Shown one piece after another: positions 53,491 to 62,223 of a DNA stretch of 64,000 nucleotides. The notes under the pieces were generated by a model, which ran no database searches, had not been told where the DNA came from, and saw only the letters and a list, made by a program, of their open reading frames with translations. The stretch is taken from positions 3,776,001 through 3,840,000 of the forward strand of contig OZ242029.1 of NCBI GenBank assembly GCA_965205015.1, given 5' to 3'. Every line of letters begins with the position of its first letter. Positions within the stretch are counted from its first letter, which is position 1. The position numbers and the translations under genes were made by a program. This DNA comes from Candidatus Poribacteria bacterium. GTDB taxonomy: Bacteria > Poribacteria > WGA-4E > WGA-3G.

Positions 53491-53619
53491 AGCGTTGTGG
53501 GCAGCCACAAGGGCAGCGTTATGGGCAGCCACAAGGGCAGTGTTATGGGCAGCCACAAGGGCAGCGTTATGGGCAGCCACAAGGGCAGCGTTATGGGCAG
53601 CCACAAGGGCAGCCCCTAC
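53491..53619. repeat. Minisatellite: 5 x 24-bp unit derived from a GTAG REP
   Basis: agcgttatgggcagccacaagggc x5 (2 substitutions in total), ending agcccctac (GTAG on -). Confidence 0.95.
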
Positions 53620-54705: not shown

Positions 54706-54736
54706 AAGGAGTGTTTTGGATAGAAAAAATAAAACA

Positions 54737-54765
54737 TTGACAATATTATGCCGTTGTGATATAAT
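54737..54765 (+). promoter_or_regulatory. Consensus sigma70 promoter for moeB
   Basis: TTGACA-17 nt-TATAAT with an extended -10 TG. Confidence 0.8.
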
Positions 54766-54849
54766 TGTGTAAGTGCAAGAGACAAAAATTTATGGACAAG
54801 AATATGAAACTCGGAGCCTCATATTCCTTCTCCGCAGGAGAAAATTTTT

Positions 54850-56037
54850 ATGAAATCCTATAGGCAAATCGTTGAAGAAGCGAAAACAGAAATACCAGAA
54901 GTAACTGTTGACGAGGTGAAAGACGAACAGGACACAGACGGCGATTTCGTGCTACTCGATGTGCGGGACGAAGATGAATATCGCGCGGGTTATATCCCGA
55001 ACGCCGTGCACGTCACACGGGGCATGCTGGAATTCTCGGTTGAGAACTATATTCCCGATCGAAACCAAAAGGTTATCATCTATTGTGCGGCAGGCCTCCG
55101 TTCGCTCCTCGCTGCCAAATCCCTACGTGAAATGGGTTATACCGATACCGTCTCTCTTGCGGGTGGATATCGCGATTGGATGGCGGCGGGTTACCCGACT
55201 GCACAAGATAAACCGATGAGCCATGAGCAACTCGATCGTTACAGTCGCCACTTTATGCTCACGGAGGTCGGGGAACAGGGGCAAGCGAAGCTCCTCGATG
55301 CTAAAGTTTTAATGGTTGGCGCAGGCGGATTAGGTTCACCCGCGGGTGTGTATCTCGGTGCTGCAGGTGTTGGACACCTCGGGATTATCGATTCCGATGT
55401 TGTCGAGCTCAGCAACCTCCAACGTCAGATCCTTCACCGCACAGAATCCGTCGGTACACCGAAGGTTCAATCCGCGACAACGACAATTAAGTCGTTGAAT
55501 CCAGATATTGACATCACACCGTATAATCTCCGCTTGACTGCGGATAACGTTGAAGATATCTTCTCGGAATACGACCTGATCGTTGATGGATGTGATAACT
55601 TCGCGACCCGTTATCTTGTCAATGATGCCGCTGTGTTGATGAACAAGCCGGTTGTTCATGGCAGTATTTTCCAATTTGAGGGACAGGTAACGCTCTTTAA
55701 ACCGCACGAGGGACCGTGCTACCGATGCATGTATCCGACACCGCCCCCGCCGGGCATGGTGCCCAGCTGAAGCGAAGCCGGTGTCCTGGGCGTGCTCCCA
55801 GGCGTAATTGGTGTTATGATGGCAACCGAAGCGATTAAATACATTATCGGTATCGGTGAACCCCTTATCGGTCGGCTCATCCTATACGACGCACTCAGCA
55901 TGACCTATCGCGAAATGAAAATCAGTCGAGATGAGAACTGCCCACTTTGCGGGGATAATCCCGTCATTACGGAATTGATTGACGATTACGATGCCGCAGC
56001 GGAAAATCCTGATACCTTTGCCCCCGCTGCCGATTAA
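54850..56037 (+). CDS. moeB: Rhodanese-fused MoeB/ThiF (E1-like) adenylyltransferase/sulfurtransferase, probable selenoprotein (UGA at 55768-55770, codon 307; 395 aa)
   Basis: Rhodanese YCAAGLRS; RYSRH, GAGGLG, SNLQRQ, DGCDNF, CYRC; reads in frame [25 protein letters not shown]...CPLC. Confidence 0.9.
55771..55802 (+). promoter_or_regulatory. Candidate bacterial SECIS hairpin
   Basis: CCUGGG-CGUGCU-CCCAGG stem-loop; loop begins 20 nt after UGA and has G at loop position 2. Confidence 0.65.
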
Positions 56038-56086
56038 CCCTTAGCACTCGATCCTGTGATCGAAATGACTCCGAGGAGGAAGGTAT

Positions 56087-56329
56087 ATGCTACCTTGCCC
56101 TGATTGTAATAATCCATTGACACAGTTTCCAATTGAACAGGACGATGTAGATCTCGTCAGTTGTGACAGTTGTTACAGTGTTTTGCTTGTTTATCCGGGT
56201 GACGATCTTGAGCGCGTAGATAACGTCACTTTTGATGACCTTGTTGAGGCATACGGCACTGAGTATCCGATTGATGTGGATCCAAGTACAGTCGAACTCC
56301 CTGAAGAAGTCGAAGACGCCTTGATGTAG
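56087..56329 (+). CDS. Small, highly acidic zinc-ribbon protein (LysW-like layout)
   Basis: CPDC...LVSCDSC; ends ELPEEVEDALM; one basic residue in 80 aa; strong SD gaggagg. Confidence 0.75.
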   Translation: MLPCPDCNNPLTQFPIEQDDVDLVSCDSCYSVLLVYPGDDLERVDNVTFDDLVEAYGTEYPIDVDPSTVELPEEVEDALM

Positions 56330-56363
56330 GCGAACACGGATTTTCAGATTTTAACAGAAAAAA

Positions 56364-56392
56364 GTAGCACATTTTTCTGAGATGTGCTATAA
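56364..56392 (+). promoter_or_regulatory. Inverted repeat overlapping a TGnTATAAT promoter
   Basis: TAGCACAT-N9-ATGTGCTA running into TATAAT. Confidence 0.5.
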
Positions 56393-56425
56393 TAACTTTA
56401 ATCCACTCTTTTAAGGAGGTTGTTA

Positions 56426-57130
56426 ATGCGAACTATCATTTTATTGGCGATGCTGGGTCTCATTGTTTCACCGGCATTCGCACAGAAATATATCAGCTGG
56501 GAAGCGGAAAACTTTAACGATTCAAACGGCACAAAATTTGAAATCTTTGAAGTCCCGACCGATCACCCGGGTAACGCTGCTGAAAGTGTAGACGATTACA
56601 CCGTCACAGAAGCATCCGGTGGGGCTTACATTGGTTCACACAATGGTGTCACAAACGATGGTGGCGATTGGGTAAAATATGAATTCACAGTTGAGGCAGA
56701 CAATTGGCACTTCTGGGGACGTGTCATCGCCCCGTCAGTCGGCGATAACTCCGTCTACTGGGCATTTGATACCGCTGACGGTGATGTTGAATCTGCCAAT
56801 AACGCCACTATGAACATCTGGGATTTCTTTGAAGCAGGGGAGCTCCGGGTTAATTATACAACCGACTGGGTCTGGTTCCGGTTGAATTCGCGTGACGGTC
56901 CGTTTGAAGGACTCGAGCTGGTTCAGCACAACGAGGATCCGGTTCCCGTGGAATTGGATGCGGGGGATCACACACTGCACATCGCACATCGCGAAGACGG
57001 TACATACATTGACAAAATTTTCGCGACAACGGATGTCGAATTTGATCCGAATGAAACCGATCCGCAGACGGCTGTTGAAGCGCAAAACAAATTGACAACG
57101 ACTTGGGGTTCGCTGAAAAGCGGATTCTAA
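56426..57130 (+). CDS. Secreted acidic beta-sandwich (carbohydrate-binding-like) protein with a C-terminal TTTW motif
   Basis: Signal peptide ending AFA; WEAENF; HTLHIAHREDGTYIDKI; ends AVEAQNKLTTTWGSLKSGF; SD aaggaggt. Confidence 0.8.
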   Translation: MRTIILLAMLGLIVSPAFAQKYISWEAENFNDSNGTKFEIFEVPTDHPGNAAESVDDYTVTEASGGAYIGSHNGVTNDGGDWVKYEFTVEADNWHFWGRVIAPSVGDNSVYWAFDTADGDVESANNATMNIWDFFEAGELRVNYTTDWVWFRLNSRDGPFEGLELVQHNEDPVPVELDAGDHTLHIAHREDGTYIDKIFATTDVEFDPNETDPQTAVEAQNKLTTTWGSLKSGF

Positions 57131-57144
57131 GGAGAACACACACT

Positions 57145-57180
57145 TAAAAGCACCCACCCGCTGGGTGCTTTTATTTTTTT
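57145..57180 (+). terminator. Rho-independent terminator
   Basis: taaaagcaccca-cccgc-tgggtgctttta followed by a T-run. Confidence 0.85.
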
Positions 57181-57268
57181 ATCTAAACTTCCGAGACGAA
57201 AACCCAATGCTTTAGCTTTGGGATACAGTCTCGCCCTCTTGGAAAGGACCAAAGCGTTCATTTTTTGT

Positions 57269-57298
57269 TTGACGTTTGGTCCGAAAGTGTGGTATAAT
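57269..57298 (+). promoter_or_regulatory. Sigma70-like promoter for tnpB
   Basis: TTGACG-18 nt-TATAAT with an extended -10 TG. Confidence 0.55.
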
Positions 57299-57397
57299 GA
57301 GAATATCAAGTTGGACCGACATATACAGCATAACCGCAAGGTTACGTGTCGGTCCCACCCACTGTATAGGGGTTAAAGACTTGAGACTTGAGAGTCC

Positions 57398-58609
57398 ATG
57401 CGAAACACGACACATAAACTTTTCAAGGATAGGACGTTGCGTCACTTGCACGACGATTGCAATATCTGTGGTGTTGTGAAAAATCACTTCTTGGCACTCT
57501 GCATGCGATATTACCGCCGCTATGGTAAAGGACTTTCGTATCGGAAAATGTCCAAGCATCTGACGAAACTCAAGAAACTTGAGAAATACAAGCATTGGAA
57601 TATCCCTTACTCTTGGGCGTTGCAAAATGTACTAAAACGGTTAGCACAAACTTTTCGTGAAATGAAAACATTGGGCAGAGGTCACCCGAAGTTCAAGTCG
57701 TGTAAGAAACACAAAGGGATGACGTTTCGGGGTGAACAGGTCAAGCTTGAAAAAGTCCTGGATAAGCAGAAAAACGAAAGAAACCATCCGACGTATAAAA
57801 TCCGCCTGAACGGACGTTGGTATCGTTTCGCCCTGCATCGTGAAATCGAAGGCGAAATCATCCAAGTTCACGTAACGAGGGACGCACTCGGTGATATGTA
57901 TATTACGTTGACGGAAGACTTTACCGAAATCAAGATCGAACCCAAGACGGGTCAAGCTGAAGGGTTCGATATGGGTATCAAAGACTTCCTGATTGACAGT
58001 GGTGGACACCGAGAGACCTCTCCAATGTTCTACAAACTCAATGCCAAGAAGTTGGCAAAAGCACAAAAGGCGTATTCCCGCAAGGTCAAAGGGTCTCACA
58101 ACCAAGAACGCGAACGCAAGACGGTTGCGCGTATCCACAAGAAAACGACGAACCAGCGAGCAGACCACCATTGGAAACTTGCGATAAAGTTGTGTCGCAA
58201 GTTCGATATTCTGTTCTTTGAAGACCTGAACCTTGAAGGGATGAAACGCTTGTGGGGAAAACAAGTGTCTGATCTCGCCTTTGGTGAGTTCCTGCGGAAA
58301 CTCAAGCACCAGTCTCATAAGCGTATTCGCTCCGTGCTAAAAATCAATCGCTGGTCGCCAACGACAAAATGCTGTTGTGTTTGTGAACATAAAAACGAAA
58401 ATCTCACGTTAGCAGATCGTCACTGGACGTGTCCAAGTTGCCATACACACCTTGACCGCGACCAGAACGCTGCGATGAACATTCTTAAGGAAGGGGTAGC
58501 TTCCTTTAGGTTAGGAGTCGTAAGACCGATCGTCCTATTCAATAGGATTGTCGGCACCTCCGTTGAATCTAACCACCCGATTCTGAATTCTACAAATGCT
58601 TCTGCATAA
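57398..58609 (+). CDS. tnpB: RNA-guided endonuclease TnpB
   Basis: PKFKS; RuvC-I GFDMGIKDF; RuvC-II FFEDLN; Zn finger TKCCCVC...WTCPSC; RuvC-III DRDQNAAMNI. Confidence 0.95.
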   Translation: MRNTTHKLFKDRTLRHLHDDCNICGVVKNHFLALCMRYYRRYGKGLSYRKMSKHLTKLKKLEKYKHWNIPYSWALQNVLKRLAQTFREMKTLGRGHPKFKSCKKHKGMTFRGEQVKLEKVLDKQKNERNHPTYKIRLNGRWYRFALHREIEGEIIQVHVTRDALGDMYITLTEDFTEIKIEPKTGQAEGFDMGIKDFLIDSGGHRETSPMFYKLNAKKLAKAQKAYSRKVKGSHNQERERKTVARIHKKTTNQRADHHWKLAIKLCRKFDILFFEDLNLEGMKRLWGKQVSDLAFGEFLRKLKHQSHKRIRSVLKINRWSPTTKCCCVCEHKNENLTLADRHWTCPSCHTHLDRDQNAAMNILKEGVASFRLGVVRPIVLFNRIVGTSVESNHPILNSTNASA

Positions 58610-58669
58610 CGATTGCAGAAGCCCAAGTCTTTAGACTTGGGTCTATCACTTTAATTGCTACCAACAACG
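58490..58669 (+). ncRNA. Predicted omegaRNA (reRNA) scaffold plus guide; 5' boundary approximate
   Basis: Overlaps the tnpB 3' end; hairpins tcctatt-c-aatagga, ttctgca-N7-tgcagaa and cccaagtc-ttta-gacttggg; guide inferred from the flank after TCAC. Confidence 0.6.
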
Positions 58670-58702
58670 CGGGATGTAGCGTTGATAAAGAGGTCTGTTA
58701 AA

Positions 58703-58892
58703 TCCAAACGTGTAGCCTGCAACAATACGCAGAAATCCGCAGAAATCCGCAGAAACACGCAGAAATACCCAAGCAAAGACACCAAGCAAAGACACCAAGC
58801 AAAAACCCCTATCAAAAACACGCAGGCGGATATAAGGAACGTATCTGATAGTGCTAACGCACGGCGTTCCACCGCAAGGAATAATTAAAAAA
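58703..58892 (+). repeat. Composite leader repeat upstream of the CRTAC1-like gene
   Basis: gtagcctgcaacaatacgcagaaat; (aaatccgcag)n and (ccaagcaaagaca)n; aaaaacacgcaggcggatat; ends ccgcaaggaataattaaaaaa. Confidence 0.88.
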
Positions 58893-58900
58893 CGGAAAAA

Positions 58901-60613
58901 TTGAAAAACGACTGTTATCTCTCGCCTGGTGCTAAAGCAGAAACCTTCCTACTCACCTTCCTGATGCTTGCCAGTTGTGCCGTGAATCCGTCCATTGCTG
59001 AAACAACACTCCGCTTCACAGACCAGACGCAGCAAGCGGGTATCCATTTCAAACATACCAACGGCGCATCCGAAGAGAAATACCTACCGGAAACAATGGG
59101 ATCTGGTGGACTCTTTTTCGACTACAATAACGATGGACACCTTGATATCTATCTCGTCAATAGCGGCACCCTCGGTCCCGATTCTCAGCTCGATAGACAT
59201 CCTGATCACATGAACGTCCTCTATCGCAATAAAGGTGATGGAACATTTGTTGATGCCACCGCAAAAGCGGGACTTCAGCAAAACGACGGTTACGGTATGG
59301 GGTGTCTCGCGGCAGACTACGATAATGACGGGGATACTGACCTTTACCTCACCAACTTCGGTAGAAACCAACTCTATCGGAACAACGGCGACGGCACCTT
59401 CACGGACGTTACGTCCAACGCCGGTGTTGGGGACGGCAACTGGGGGGTGAGCGCGTCCTTCGGGGACTTTAACCTTGATGGACATCTCGACCTCTATGTA
59501 GCAAATTATTTGGATTATCGGTTAGAGAGCGCCCACGCTTGTTTTTTGGAAGGCGTCCATATCTATTGTGGTCCGCATGAATACCCGGGGGCACGTGATA
59601 CACTTTATCGGAACAACGGCGACGGCACCTTCACGGACGTTACGACCCGTGCGGGGGTTCACAACACCGGTAAAGGGTTGGGGGTGCTCTTTACAGATTA
59701 TAACAACGACGGCTATCCTGATATTTTCGTTGCTAACGACGCCGTTCCCGATTTCCTTTATCGGAACAACAGGGATGGAACGTTCACAGATGTCGCTATC
59801 ACTGCAGGAGTTGCCTATAACTCAGAAGGACGCGCAACGGCGAGTATGGGGATCGCTTCCGGGGATTACGATAACGACGGCGTTCAGGATCTCTTCGTTA
59901 CGAATTTCTCTCTGGAAATCAATAGCCTTTTTCGCAACGATAATGACGGTTTTTATACGATGACCACCTTTGAAGCGGGGCTCGCTGATCCGAGTTTCTC
60001 AAAACTCGGTTTCGGCACGCAGTTCCTTGACGCAGATAACGACGGGACACTCGAACTTTTCGTCGCAAATGGGCACGTGTGGGACAATGTCTCAGAGATT
60101 ACGCCATCGCTCTCCTACAGGCAACAGTGCCAAATTTTTGGGAACACAGAAACAGGGCAATTCAGAGATTTATCTGAGACGGCGGGTCGGTTCTTCAAAC
60201 GTTCTATTGTCGCACGTGGTGTCGCCGTTGGTGATTATAACAACGATGGCGCGGCGGATATCCTCGTCACCTGTTGTGATGAACCCCCAATTTTGCTGCG
60301 AAACGATTCCCCCGTCCACGACTATGTGAAAATTCGACTCATCGGCACCCAAGGTAACCGCGATGGCATCGGTGCGAAGGTGTGGGTCCATACAGACGAA
60401 GTGACCCAGTTCAGAGAGGTAACGTGCGGTGGTAGTTACGCCTCTGGTAGCGAGCAAACGCTCCTCTTCGGCATCGGGGCTCACAGGACGCTTCAATCCA
60501 TCGAAGTAAAATGGCAAAATGGGCACACCCAAACACTCAATTTTACAGATGCTGGGAGTCCCGTAAATCAAACTATCTATATTACTGAGAAACTGAATGA
60601 ACCTATGAATTAG
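58901..60613 (+). CDS. CRTAC1-like protein (FG-GAP/VCBS repeats + ASPIC/UnbV domain)
   Basis: ETMGSG; repeated DY.NDG..D.Y/FV.N and LYRNNGDGTFTDVT; NRDGIGA; GGSYAS; FGIG; start uncertain. Confidence 0.92.
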   Translation: MKNDCYLSPGAKAETFLLTFLMLASCAVNPSIAETTLRFTDQTQQAGIHFKHTNGASEEKYLPETMGSGGLFFDYNNDGHLDIYLVNSGTLGPDSQLDRHPDHMNVLYRNKGDGTFVDATAKAGLQQNDGYGMGCLAADYDNDGDTDLYLTNFGRNQLYRNNGDGTFTDVTSNAGVGDGNWGVSASFGDFNLDGHLDLYVANYLDYRLESAHACFLEGVHIYCGPHEYPGARDTLYRNNGDGTFTDVTTRAGVHNTGKGLGVLFTDYNNDGYPDIFVANDAVPDFLYRNNRDGTFTDVAITAGVAYNSEGRATASMGIASGDYDNDGVQDLFVTNFSLEINSLFRNDNDGFYTMTTFEAGLADPSFSKLGFGTQFLDADNDGTLELFVANGHVWDNVSEITPSLSYRQQCQIFGNTETGQFRDLSETAGRFFKRSIVARGVAVGDYNNDGAADILVTCCDEPPILLRNDSPVHDYVKIRLIGTQGNRDGIGAKVWVHTDEVTQFREVTCGGSYASGSEQTLLFGIGAHRTLQSIEVKWQNGHTQTLNFTDAGSPVNQTIYITEKLNEPMN

Positions 60614-60614
60614 G

Positions 60615-60643
60615 TTGACATTATTGATTTCTGCGCGTATAAT
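60615..60643 (+). promoter_or_regulatory. Consensus sigma70 promoter for cysC
   Basis: TTGACA-17 nt-TATAAT. Confidence 0.8.
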
Positions 60644-60726
60644 TGTAAAATAATTGTATCTGACGATAGAGGCACATTTGGAACGCCTCAATTTTATGAA
60701 TTCTAAGATATGTGAGGAATAATAGA

Positions 60727-61344
60727 TTGGCTCAACAGAAAGCAACCAATATTACGTGGCACGATGCGATTGTCACGGTGGAAGATAGAGAAAAATTGCT
60801 GAATCAGAAAGGCTGTGTGATTTGGTTTACAGGTCTCTCCGGTTCGGGGAAATCGACGTTAGCAAACGCAGTTGAACAGGTATTACATCAACAACAGCAC
60901 CACACCTACGTCTTGGATGGCGACAATGTTCGCCACGGATTAAACAAGAACTTGGGGTTCTCACCCGAAGATCGAGAGGAAAACATCCGGCGCATCGGTG
61001 AAGTGGCGAAACTTTTTGCAGATGCCGGCACCATTGTTATGACAGCCTTCATCTCACCCTATCGCGCCGATAGGGATCAGGCGAGAGAACTTATTGCTGA
61101 AGGTAGATTCGTTGAAGTTTTCGTGGAGTGTCCACTTGAGGTCTGTGAAGAACGCGATACGAAAGGTTTATACAAAAAAGCGCGCGCTGGAGAGATTAAG
61201 GAGTTTACCGGCATCAGTGCCCCTTACGAACCGCCCGTCGATCCAGAGGTCACAGTGAATACAGCGGAGCTCTCGCTTGAAAAATCCGCACACGTCGTCG
61301 TCTCGTCTCTTGTGAAAGCAGGCTTAGTCCCCGGTGGAAATTAG
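60727..61344 (+). CDS. cysC: Adenylyl-sulfate kinase
   Basis: [52 protein letters not shown]; TTG 60727 after SD gagga. Confidence 0.96.
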
Positions 61345-61404
61345 ACGGGAAACCGAGATGTTCACTTCGCACGAGAAATGCCAGGCAGAGAGGGAGACCT
61401 GAAA

Positions 61405-62223
61405 ATGGAAGCAGTTATCAGGCAATTCAAAGAGAACGGGTTCGCCATTCTGCGCGGCGTTTTGGAGCCGGGAACGCTTGAGGCTGTCAAACACGAATGT
61501 GAAGCGTTAGTCGCTGAACTGGCAACGCGTCGGTATGCGGAAGGAAAACTGACAGACACCCATCCCGATGCCTCTTTTGAGACCCGCCTCATTCGGCTCT
61601 ACGAAAGTTATCCCGACGAAACCCCAACCATTTTTCGCTCGGAACTCCATCGGGAAGGTTTTTTCGGTGTGTTTGCACACCCCTCTCTCCTTGAACTCGC
61701 TGGCATCATCCTCGGTCCAGAGATCCGATTGTACCCGAACTATTCTGTTCGTCCGAAACTACCGGAGAACAAACGCACAGAGGTATTATGGCATCAAGAT
61801 GCCGGTTATACCTCGAAAGCAGCTGATGTTTTGCGGATGATGAATGTCTGGACGCCTTTAGTACCGGTCAACGTTGAAAACGGGTGTATGGAATTCATTC
61901 CGGGAAGCCATAAGTGGGGTGTTGTGCCACACGAAGAGGATGAGTACTATCTGCGTATCCACGATGACTATATCAAACCGGTTGAAGCGGATGCCGTCCG
62001 TATCGAAATTCTGCCGGGGGATGTTGCCATTTTCAGTAATCTGTTGTTCCACCGCGGGTTGCCGAACCGTGCCTCACACATCCGATGGAGTTTAGATTGG
62101 CGTTATCAGGATGCCACACAACCGACGCTTCGAACGACCCACGGGCATCTCCTCCATTCACAAAGGGCACCAGACGCGGTCGTTAAAGACGCCGAGGCGT
62201 GGGCACACCTCGAATTTTCCTAA
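61405..62223 (+). CDS. Phytanoyl-CoA dioxygenase (PhyH) family
   Basis: WHQDAGY, NVWTPL, NGCMEFIPGSH, LFHRG, RWSLDWRY; start 61405 or 61378. Confidence 0.9.
   Translation: MEAVIRQFKENGFAILRGVLEPGTLEAVKHECEALVAELATRRYAEGKLTDTHPDASFETRLIRLYESYPDETPTIFRSELHREGFFGVFAHPSLLELAGIILGPEIRLYPNYSVRPKLPENKRTEVLWHQDAGYTSKAADVLRMMNVWTPLVPVNVENGCMEFIPGSHKWGVVPHEEDEYYLRIHDDYIKPVEADAVRIEILPGDVAIFSNLLFHRGLPNRASHIRWSLDWRYQDATQPTLRTTHGHLLHSQRAPDAVVKDAEAWAHLEFS

Follow-up and report, generated by a model that had tools for sequence, protein, structure and literature searches.

A UGA codon in the genome of a Candidatus Poribacteria bacterium is followed, in the same frame, by a second open reading frame (ORF), and the question arises whether the two frames encode one protein or two, or are the remains of a broken gene. 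The locus lies in a stretch of 64,000 nucleotides (contig OZ242029.1, positions 3,776,001 to 3,840,000 of the forward strand), hereafter called the window, in which positions are counted from its first letter. The initial annotation of this DNA had read both frames as a single selenoenzyme in which a rhodanese domain is combined with a MoeB-like E1 domain, and had stated that selenocysteine (Sec)-containing MoeB is present in surveys of bacterial selenoproteomes. The literature agrees with the latter: Zhang, Fomenko & Gladyshev (2005; PMC1088965) introduced the 'molybdopterin biosynthesis MoeB protein' among their new selenoprotein families, with 11 sequences from the Sargasso Sea, and two sequences in the supplement carry U in a PS-U-..AGVLGVLPG context. 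Three years later, in 2008, 19 MoeB selenoproteins were counted in the GOS data (PMC2398784), and the family is included in two reviews (PMC9312934; PMC13188914). Judged by titles, no paper on a selenocysteine form of rhodanese-MoeB in Poribacteria was found.

Two open reading frames are joined through one UGA

Translation of 54850-56037 with TGA read as U yielded 395 residues with a single recoded codon, U307, so that the two ORFs indeed form one frame joined via one UGA, as the initial annotation had claimed (Table 1). An AGGAG motif resembling a Shine-Dalgarno sequence is located a few bases 5' of the ATG at 54850. For the GTG at 55792, inspection of the sequence immediately 5' revealed no promoter-like site and no obvious Shine-Dalgarno motif. 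The UGA is also found in an independent contig from a sponge metagenome (run X4), which spans 55621-55872 with 0 differences from the window. Contigs from RNA libraries that match the gene indicate its presence only, and neither its translation nor the strand; carry-over of DNA is possible in such libraries. Other TGA-joined frames that were detected in a scan of the 64-kb window were shadow frames or unsupported cases only.

It had further been claimed that standard pipelines would call the gene a pseudogene. This was not confirmed: the databases instead give a shortened protein, with a length of 306-307 aa in at least 33 of the database matches (among 120 listed).

Table 1. Location of the features described in the text (window positions, unless a relative's genome is named)
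Feature	Position	Strand	Description
ORF 1	54850..55770	+	306 aa, ATG start
ORF 2	55792..56037	+	81 aa, GTG start; same frame as ORF 1
Whole selenoprotein gene	54850..56037	+	395 codons plus TAA
Promoter-like TTGACA-17-TATAAT	54737..54765	+	consensus match only, 12/12; TG before -10; about 85 nt 5' of the ATG
Rhodanese domain	54904..55185	+	residues 19-112, Pfam PF00581, 4e-20
Rhodanese active-site loop Cys79 (C-A-A-G-L-R)	55084-55086	+	invariant in alignment A2
ThiF/MoeB E1-like adenylation domain	55240..55944	+	residues 131-365, Pfam PF00899, 1.2e-86
UGA (Sec307)	55768..55770	+	column of the catalytic (crossover-loop) cysteine
SECIS-like hairpin	55785..55802	+	6-bp stem, 6-nt loop CGUGCU; codes for part of VLGVLPG
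C-terminal 88 residues	55771..56034	+	made only with the UGA decoded; include the second Zn CxxC
Small ORF with two CxxC pairs (zinc-ribbon-like)	56087-56329	+	80 aa; directly 3' of the selenoprotein gene; no Pfam match
IS200/IS605-type TnpB	ORF 57398-58609, region 57170-58940	+	OrfB_IS605 and Cas12f1-like TNB domain
Tandem repeat	53491-53613		24-nt unit, 5.1 copies, 96% matches; intergenic, after PorV-like gene
Cys paralogue	G001:C2:466937-467644 (L107:1435-2241)	-	268 aa, MoeB/ThiF
MoeB/ThiF paralogue	G004:C1:3865051-3865758		268 aa, stand-alone

Domain organization and family assignment

The 395-residue protein consists of a rhodanese domain and an E1-like domain, the rhodanese being N-terminal to the E1 domain and not C-terminal as in the MoeZ/Uba4/MOCS3 type. 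With C substituted for U, it scored 539.2 bits on the NCBIfam model NF006444 (PRK08762 MoeB; cut-off 449), residues 5-383 covering positions 4-382 of the 387 of the profile. The cut-off of NF005902 (MoeZ) was not reached (403 versus 647). The rhodanese-like protein 6MXV was matched at 1.3e-61, and E. coli MoeB (1JW9) and ThiF (1ZFN/1ZUD) were matched across the whole E1 domain with E values of about 5e-59.

The E1 domain carries a glycine-rich nucleotide loop, GAGGLG, and two CxxC motifs. In an alignment of the protein with 33 full-length homologues (A2) G157, G159 and G160 of this domain were invariant together with the cysteines C290, C293, C364 and C367, as were Y78, C79, G82, R84 and S85 of the rhodanese. 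The four zinc cysteines align with C172/C175/C244/C247 of E. coli MoeB. The pair C290/C293 precedes the UGA and C364/C367 follows it, in accordance with the original description of the second zinc-binding CxxC as lying beyond this codon. Termination at this codon would hence deprive the protein of half of its zinc site, along with the other downstream residues.

Several known proteins can be compared with the window protein. Uba4 (human MOCS3) and MoeZ/MoeZR are likewise two-domain adenylyltransferase/sulfurtransferases, but their domain order is reversed and they have Cys where the window protein has Sec. In E. coli MoeB and ThiF both zinc CxxC motifs and the crossover cysteine are aligned, whereas a rhodanese is absent and the residue is Cys, not Sec. 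The Cys forms of NF006444/PRK08762 from Binatia and Nitrospinota have the same architecture, are 50-62% identical and share an identical motif around the catalytic column. The Sargasso MoeB selenoproteins (PMC1088965) share the ThiF/MoeB domain with the window protein; in two of these sequences Sec occupies the equivalent column, and the DNA just 3' of the UGA, at the site of the hairpin described below, is very similar. One Sargasso protein sequence differs in carrying its rhodanese-like domain after the E1 domain, the order found in MoeZ, where the window protein has an N-terminal rhodanese.

The UGA is positioned on an invariant cysteine

HMMER alignments placed U307 opposite Cys187 of E. 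coli MoeB (1JW9_B) and opposite the ThiF cysteine that immediately precedes R-T-A-G-V (1ZFN_A; position 186 of this chain, which has two extra residues, i.e. Cys184 by count). In Uba4 of C. thermophilum (6YUB) it aligned with the cysteine of S-C-G-E-A-G. The same column was occupied by Cys in 33/33 of the full-length homologues of A2 and in 30/30 Binatia orthologues, encoded by TGC in 21 and by TGT in 9. The Cys/UGA pairing that the initial annotation had proposed to look for among MoeB homologues was thus recovered throughout. A UGA exactly on an invariant cysteine constitutes a classic Sec/Cys pair, which argues against read-through as a standard amino acid.

The UGA is conserved and the residues beyond it are under selection

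Conservation of the codon was examined in 80 related loci from species-representative genomes. These comprised 78 loci at 71-98% identity (75 titled Poribacteria and 3 'uncultured bacterium'), one from Nitrospinota and one from Binatia. Codon 307 is TGA in 79 of the 80 loci; the remaining one, from Binatia, has TGC. In the phylum of the relative G001 (Poribacteria) 165 of 175 genomes were matched at E <= 1e-100, and exactly one TGA was present in each of the 150 matches listed, which ranged from 98 down to 61% identity. Beyond the 150 listed there were 164 weaker matches, at least some of which represent a Cys paralogue. The occurrence of the UGA in related genomes, proposed earlier as a point to be checked, was hereby established. 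The dN/dS ratios relative to the window (77 pairs) were 0.055 for the rhodanese, 0.036 for the E1 domain before the UGA and 0.063-0.067 after it. The similarity of the values on both sides of the UGA indicates that the 88 downstream residues are under the same purifying selection.

These results bear on two explanations in which no selenoprotein is made. That the locus is a pseudogene through a fresh nonsense mutation, or a sequencing or assembly error, with the 81-aa ORF as a relic, would agree with the stop of gene callers at 306 aa (at least 33 among the 120 matches listed) and with the hairpin not being significant in the single sequence, but the same TGA in 79/80 independent assemblies and in 150/150 matches listed in the phylum, a downstream dN/dS of 0.06 and an independent DNA contig that is identical across the site leave this a vanishingly small probability, the conservation of the UGA and the downstream dN/dS in effect refuting it.

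The second explanation is a split gene: the UGA would end translation, and an 81-aa peptide made separately from GTG 55792 would associate with the 306-aa fragment. The GTG start is present. However, the seven codons 308-314 that separate the TGA from this GTG encode S/N-E-A-G-V-L-G, the most conserved motif of the family, in every one of the 79 TGA loci, which excludes a split gene with a restart at 55792. Moreover, a residue at the catalytic column would be absent from such a pair, neither a promoter-like site nor an obvious Shine-Dalgarno motif precedes 55792, and the synonymous sites that are constrained here coincide with a hairpin at SECIS distance. The chance that the protein is assembled from two separately translated pieces is accordingly rated as very slight.

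A hairpin 3' of the UGA is constrained in the Sec forms only

The hairpin is composed of CCTGGG (55785-55790), the loop CGTGCT (55791-55796) and CCCAGG (55797-55802). It begins 14 nt 3' of the UGA, the gap between UGA and loop is 20 nt, and a G is found at loop position 2; the coordinates agree with the CCUGGG/CGUGCU/CCCAGG hairpin of the initial annotation. The published criterion asks for a stem-loop closely 3' of the UGA whose apical loop is small and carries a G, and the hairpin possesses these features. Folding of 63 nt of the single sequence was not better than that of shuffled versions (z = +0.62; 140 of 200 shuffles folded at least as well). In addition, a CUNGG/CCNGG stem is already favoured by the peptide L-G...P-G, also in the Cys forms. 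The evidence that decides the question comes from synonymous sites.

The synonymous variation was determined in seven-codon windows over 79 rows of Sec forms (the window and the 78 loci at 71-98% identity). Codons 312-318 (V-L-G-V-L-P-G) showed a normalised synonymous entropy of 0.107, the lowest of all windows (rank 1 of 389; median 0.742). GGC and GTG were invariant here, and GTC, CTG and CTC were each present in 77-78 of the 79 rows. The codon 5' of the UGA was also fixed (AGC 68, AGT 1). As a control, 30 Binatia orthologues were used that have the identical peptide and TGC or TGT in place of TGA; in these Cys forms the entropy was 0.82 (rank 363 of 389; median 0.703) and the hairpin codons were without synonymous constraint. 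The low entropy in the Sec forms versus the free variation in the Cys forms implies that the constraint is tied to the UGA genes; neither the peptide nor codon bias accounts for it.

Pairing was subsequently evaluated in an alignment of 80 rows, of which 62 are distinct (A1). The cells of the helix were paired in 99.7%, compared with at most 68.8% when the partner was slid. Four of the six helix pairs vary; the changes (U-A to U-G, C-G to U-G, G-C to G-U) affect a single side and are compatible with wobble pairing, and one cell is unpaired. Covariation was sought in this helix and a double-sided change was found in none of the 6 pairs. The hairpin is supported by conservation, not by covariation, and the sequence comparison shows a constraint at the level of the RNA.

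Relatives possess the selenocysteine machinery

The genes for Sec insertion were searched for in related genomes, four from Poribacteria (G001-G004) and one from Binatia (G005). tRNA-Sec was detected in 5/5 with 73-78 bits versus a gathering score of 47, and SelA, SelB and SelD each exceeded their cut-off in 5/5. tRNA-Sec was found as well in three further genomes (G066-G068, 3/3), which brings it over the cut-off in 8/8 related genomes. Hence the selA, selB, selC and selD set that the initial annotation had wished to see was encountered in the relatives. Across 54716-57178 the DNA identity to G001-G003 is 87-90%, within a range of 83-90% for the relatives around the gene, which means that these genomes are related to the window but are not of the same species. 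The 64-kb window itself contained neither a tRNA nor a match to an Rfam family at its gathering score. The SelD loci of the five genomes (L102-L106 in G001-G005) contain one in-frame TGA each, SelD itself being a selenoprotein there.

A third explanation holds that a standard amino acid (Trp, Cys or Gly) is inserted at the UGA, either by near-cognate decoding or under a reassigned code. Read-through and Sec insertion predict the same downstream conservation. Against it stands that TGA terminates 14 of the 62 ORFs in the window, from which it follows that TGA is a normal stop here and that the code has not been reassigned. Furthermore, only the UGA-bearing genes show the constraint on the hairpin, the relatives contain the full Sec machinery with SelD as a UGA gene, and the UGA coincides exactly with the invariant Cys. 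Insertion of a standard amino acid is consequently considered improbable.

We conclude with high confidence that 54850-56037 is a single Poribacteria gene for a 395-aa selenoprotein of the NF006444 type, with a rhodanese and a MoeB/ThiF E1-like domain, the UGA of which is decoded by SelB and tRNA-Sec and which, by analogy, would act by a selenoester route. The gene is a genuine, misannotated selenoprotein gene of a known family. In the proposed mechanism the hairpin at 55785-55802 would recruit SelB and tRNA-Sec, by which the UGA at 55768-55770 would be decoded as selenocysteine; we infer that selenium is incorporated at U307.

Sec and Cys forms are distributed over different clades

The residue at position 307 depends on the clade. 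In the Binatia class the gene was present in 58 of 61 genomes and a stop was observed in 0/60 of the matches listed. G005, the Binatia genome that was searched for it, has the Sec machinery though the Binatia gene keeps Cys. In the phylum Nitrospinota 46 of 51 genomes were matched; TGA was found in 1 only (G066), and 45/46 were without a stop. A stand-alone MoeB/ThiF paralogue of 268 aa is encoded by both Poribacteria genomes that were searched for it (G001 and G004; Table 1). The paralogue of G001 is 61% identical to the E1 domain of the Sec enzyme and has Cys at the Sec column.

The possible function of Sec307

A function for Sec307 can be proposed by analogy with the characterized E1-like enzymes. 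In Uba4, the thioester between Cys225 and Urm1 is indispensable for the transfer between the two Uba4 domains (PMC6007339), and Cys202 of CtUba4, the equivalent of Cys225 of ScUba4, is where the Urm1 thioester forms (PMC11662940). The E1 cysteine at the Sec307 column in this enzyme (Sc Cys225, Ct Cys202) forms the carrier thioester, and the rhodanese cysteine carries a persulfide. If the selenoprotein acts similarly, its E1 domain would adenylate a ubiquitin-like sulfur carrier (MoaD/ThiS/CysO type) at the C-terminal glycine. Sec307, on a mobile loop, would then capture the acyl-adenylate as an acyl-selenoester, which in turn would be attacked by the persulfide on Cys79 of the rhodanese to release the carrier thiocarboxylate. 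Cooperation of a persulfide-bearing rhodanese cysteine with Sec may reasonably be supposed from this analogy. In an AF2 model of the protein (mean pLDDT 86.7) the block 301-310 had the lowest confidence inside the fold (59), which fits a predicted mobile loop at Sec307.

A different chemistry has to be considered for a true selenoprotein. Sec307 could have a resolving or redox role, for example in Se-S cleavage of a rhodanese acyl-persulfide, or could serve selenium handling, in both cases without an acyl intermediate. Compared with Cys, Sec is superior as a leaving group and as a resolving group. E. coli MoeB reportedly does not need its Cys187, and the catalytic requirement may accordingly differ among family members. 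Also, a ThiF-ThiS acyl-disulfide is cited as the last intermediate in PMC11662940. On the other hand Uba4, a two-domain enzyme although of opposite domain order, uses the Cys of the same column for a thioester. This resolving or redox Sec is the main alternative to the acyl-selenoester; the present data fit both chemistries, and it is judged unlikely, although its chance is appreciable and far greater than that of the three explanations dealt with above.

Candidate carriers are present in a relative. G001 encodes four carriers of the ThiS/MoaD family: a MoaD adjoining MoaE; a SAMP/CysO-like protein adjoining a JAMM desampylase-like gene, CysH and cysteine synthase; a ThiS adjoining ThiO; and a MoaD-like protein adjoining a molybdoenzyme of the xanthine-dehydrogenase type. 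Neither of the E1 genes of G001 adjoins a carrier gene. A partner carrier or pathway gene was also sought around the selenoprotein gene in the window and at 7 other loci, where nothing was conserved beyond close relatives.

Genomic neighbourhood

The 80-aa ORF that follows the gene is not a carrier of the ThiS/MoaD type. At the same place in the locus L046 an ORF matches Zn_ribbon_TFIIB. Further downstream lies the TnpB element. In the relative G002 its flanks (window about 54726-57181 and about 58934-62000) are just some 30 bp apart, which identifies the element as an insertion in the window. Copies of it with 78-82% identity were seen at several other sites in G001-G003. An APS kinase gene (CysC; 60712-61344, +), which belongs to sulfur assimilation, is located about 4.7 kb 3' of the selenoprotein gene, with the TnpB insertion and other genes in between. 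The tandem repeat upstream reads as AAHNAALV-type repeats on one strand.

Two observations concern the Cys forms of Binatia. Directly 3' of the rhodanese-MoeB gene in L120 a gene for an 81-aa ThiS/Ub-Mut7C-like protein was found (L120:2707-2952, +). It is possible that this protein is the cognate carrier of the Cys-form enzyme; such a neighbour was absent at the other loci examined. In L121 (1447-3291) and L124 (835-2691) the rhodanese-MoeB frame is 614-618 aa long and includes an N-terminal extension of about 230 residues without a Pfam match. This extension may be an additional domain, or an artefact of ORF calling due to an in-frame start further 5'.

Implications

As far as the searches reach, three aspects go beyond the published record: the layout with an N-terminal rhodanese, the fixation of Sec in the phylum sample beside a Cys paralogue, and the control on the SECIS by means of the Cys forms. 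In public databases at least 33 clusters give the protein as a 'ThiF family adenylyltransferase' of 306 aa, and the misannotation touches all genomes among the matches listed in the phylum sample. Taken literally, the 306-aa call would introduce a dead enzyme into metabolic reconstructions of Poribacteria, the last 88 residues containing half of the zinc site. Where an in-frame SECIS coincides with a conserved peptide, the comparison of synonymous sites with those of Cys forms offers a way to validate it without recourse to covariation.

We tentatively suggest, with considerable doubt, that an entire phylum of sponge symbionts has fixed Sec at the catalytic position of an E1 enzyme beside a Cys paralogue (in two genomes), while sister groups that have the Sec machinery keep Cys, and that the acyl-selenoester, if formed, would be the first selenoester chemistry in an E1 enzyme. 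Sec fixed in the Poribacteria sample versus Cys in Binatia and Nitrospinota provides a clean comparative setting for the benefit of Sec at the E1 position. If Sec307 forms an acyl-selenoester, the family would provide a case from nature in which to study why a thioester step is used by E1 enzymes.
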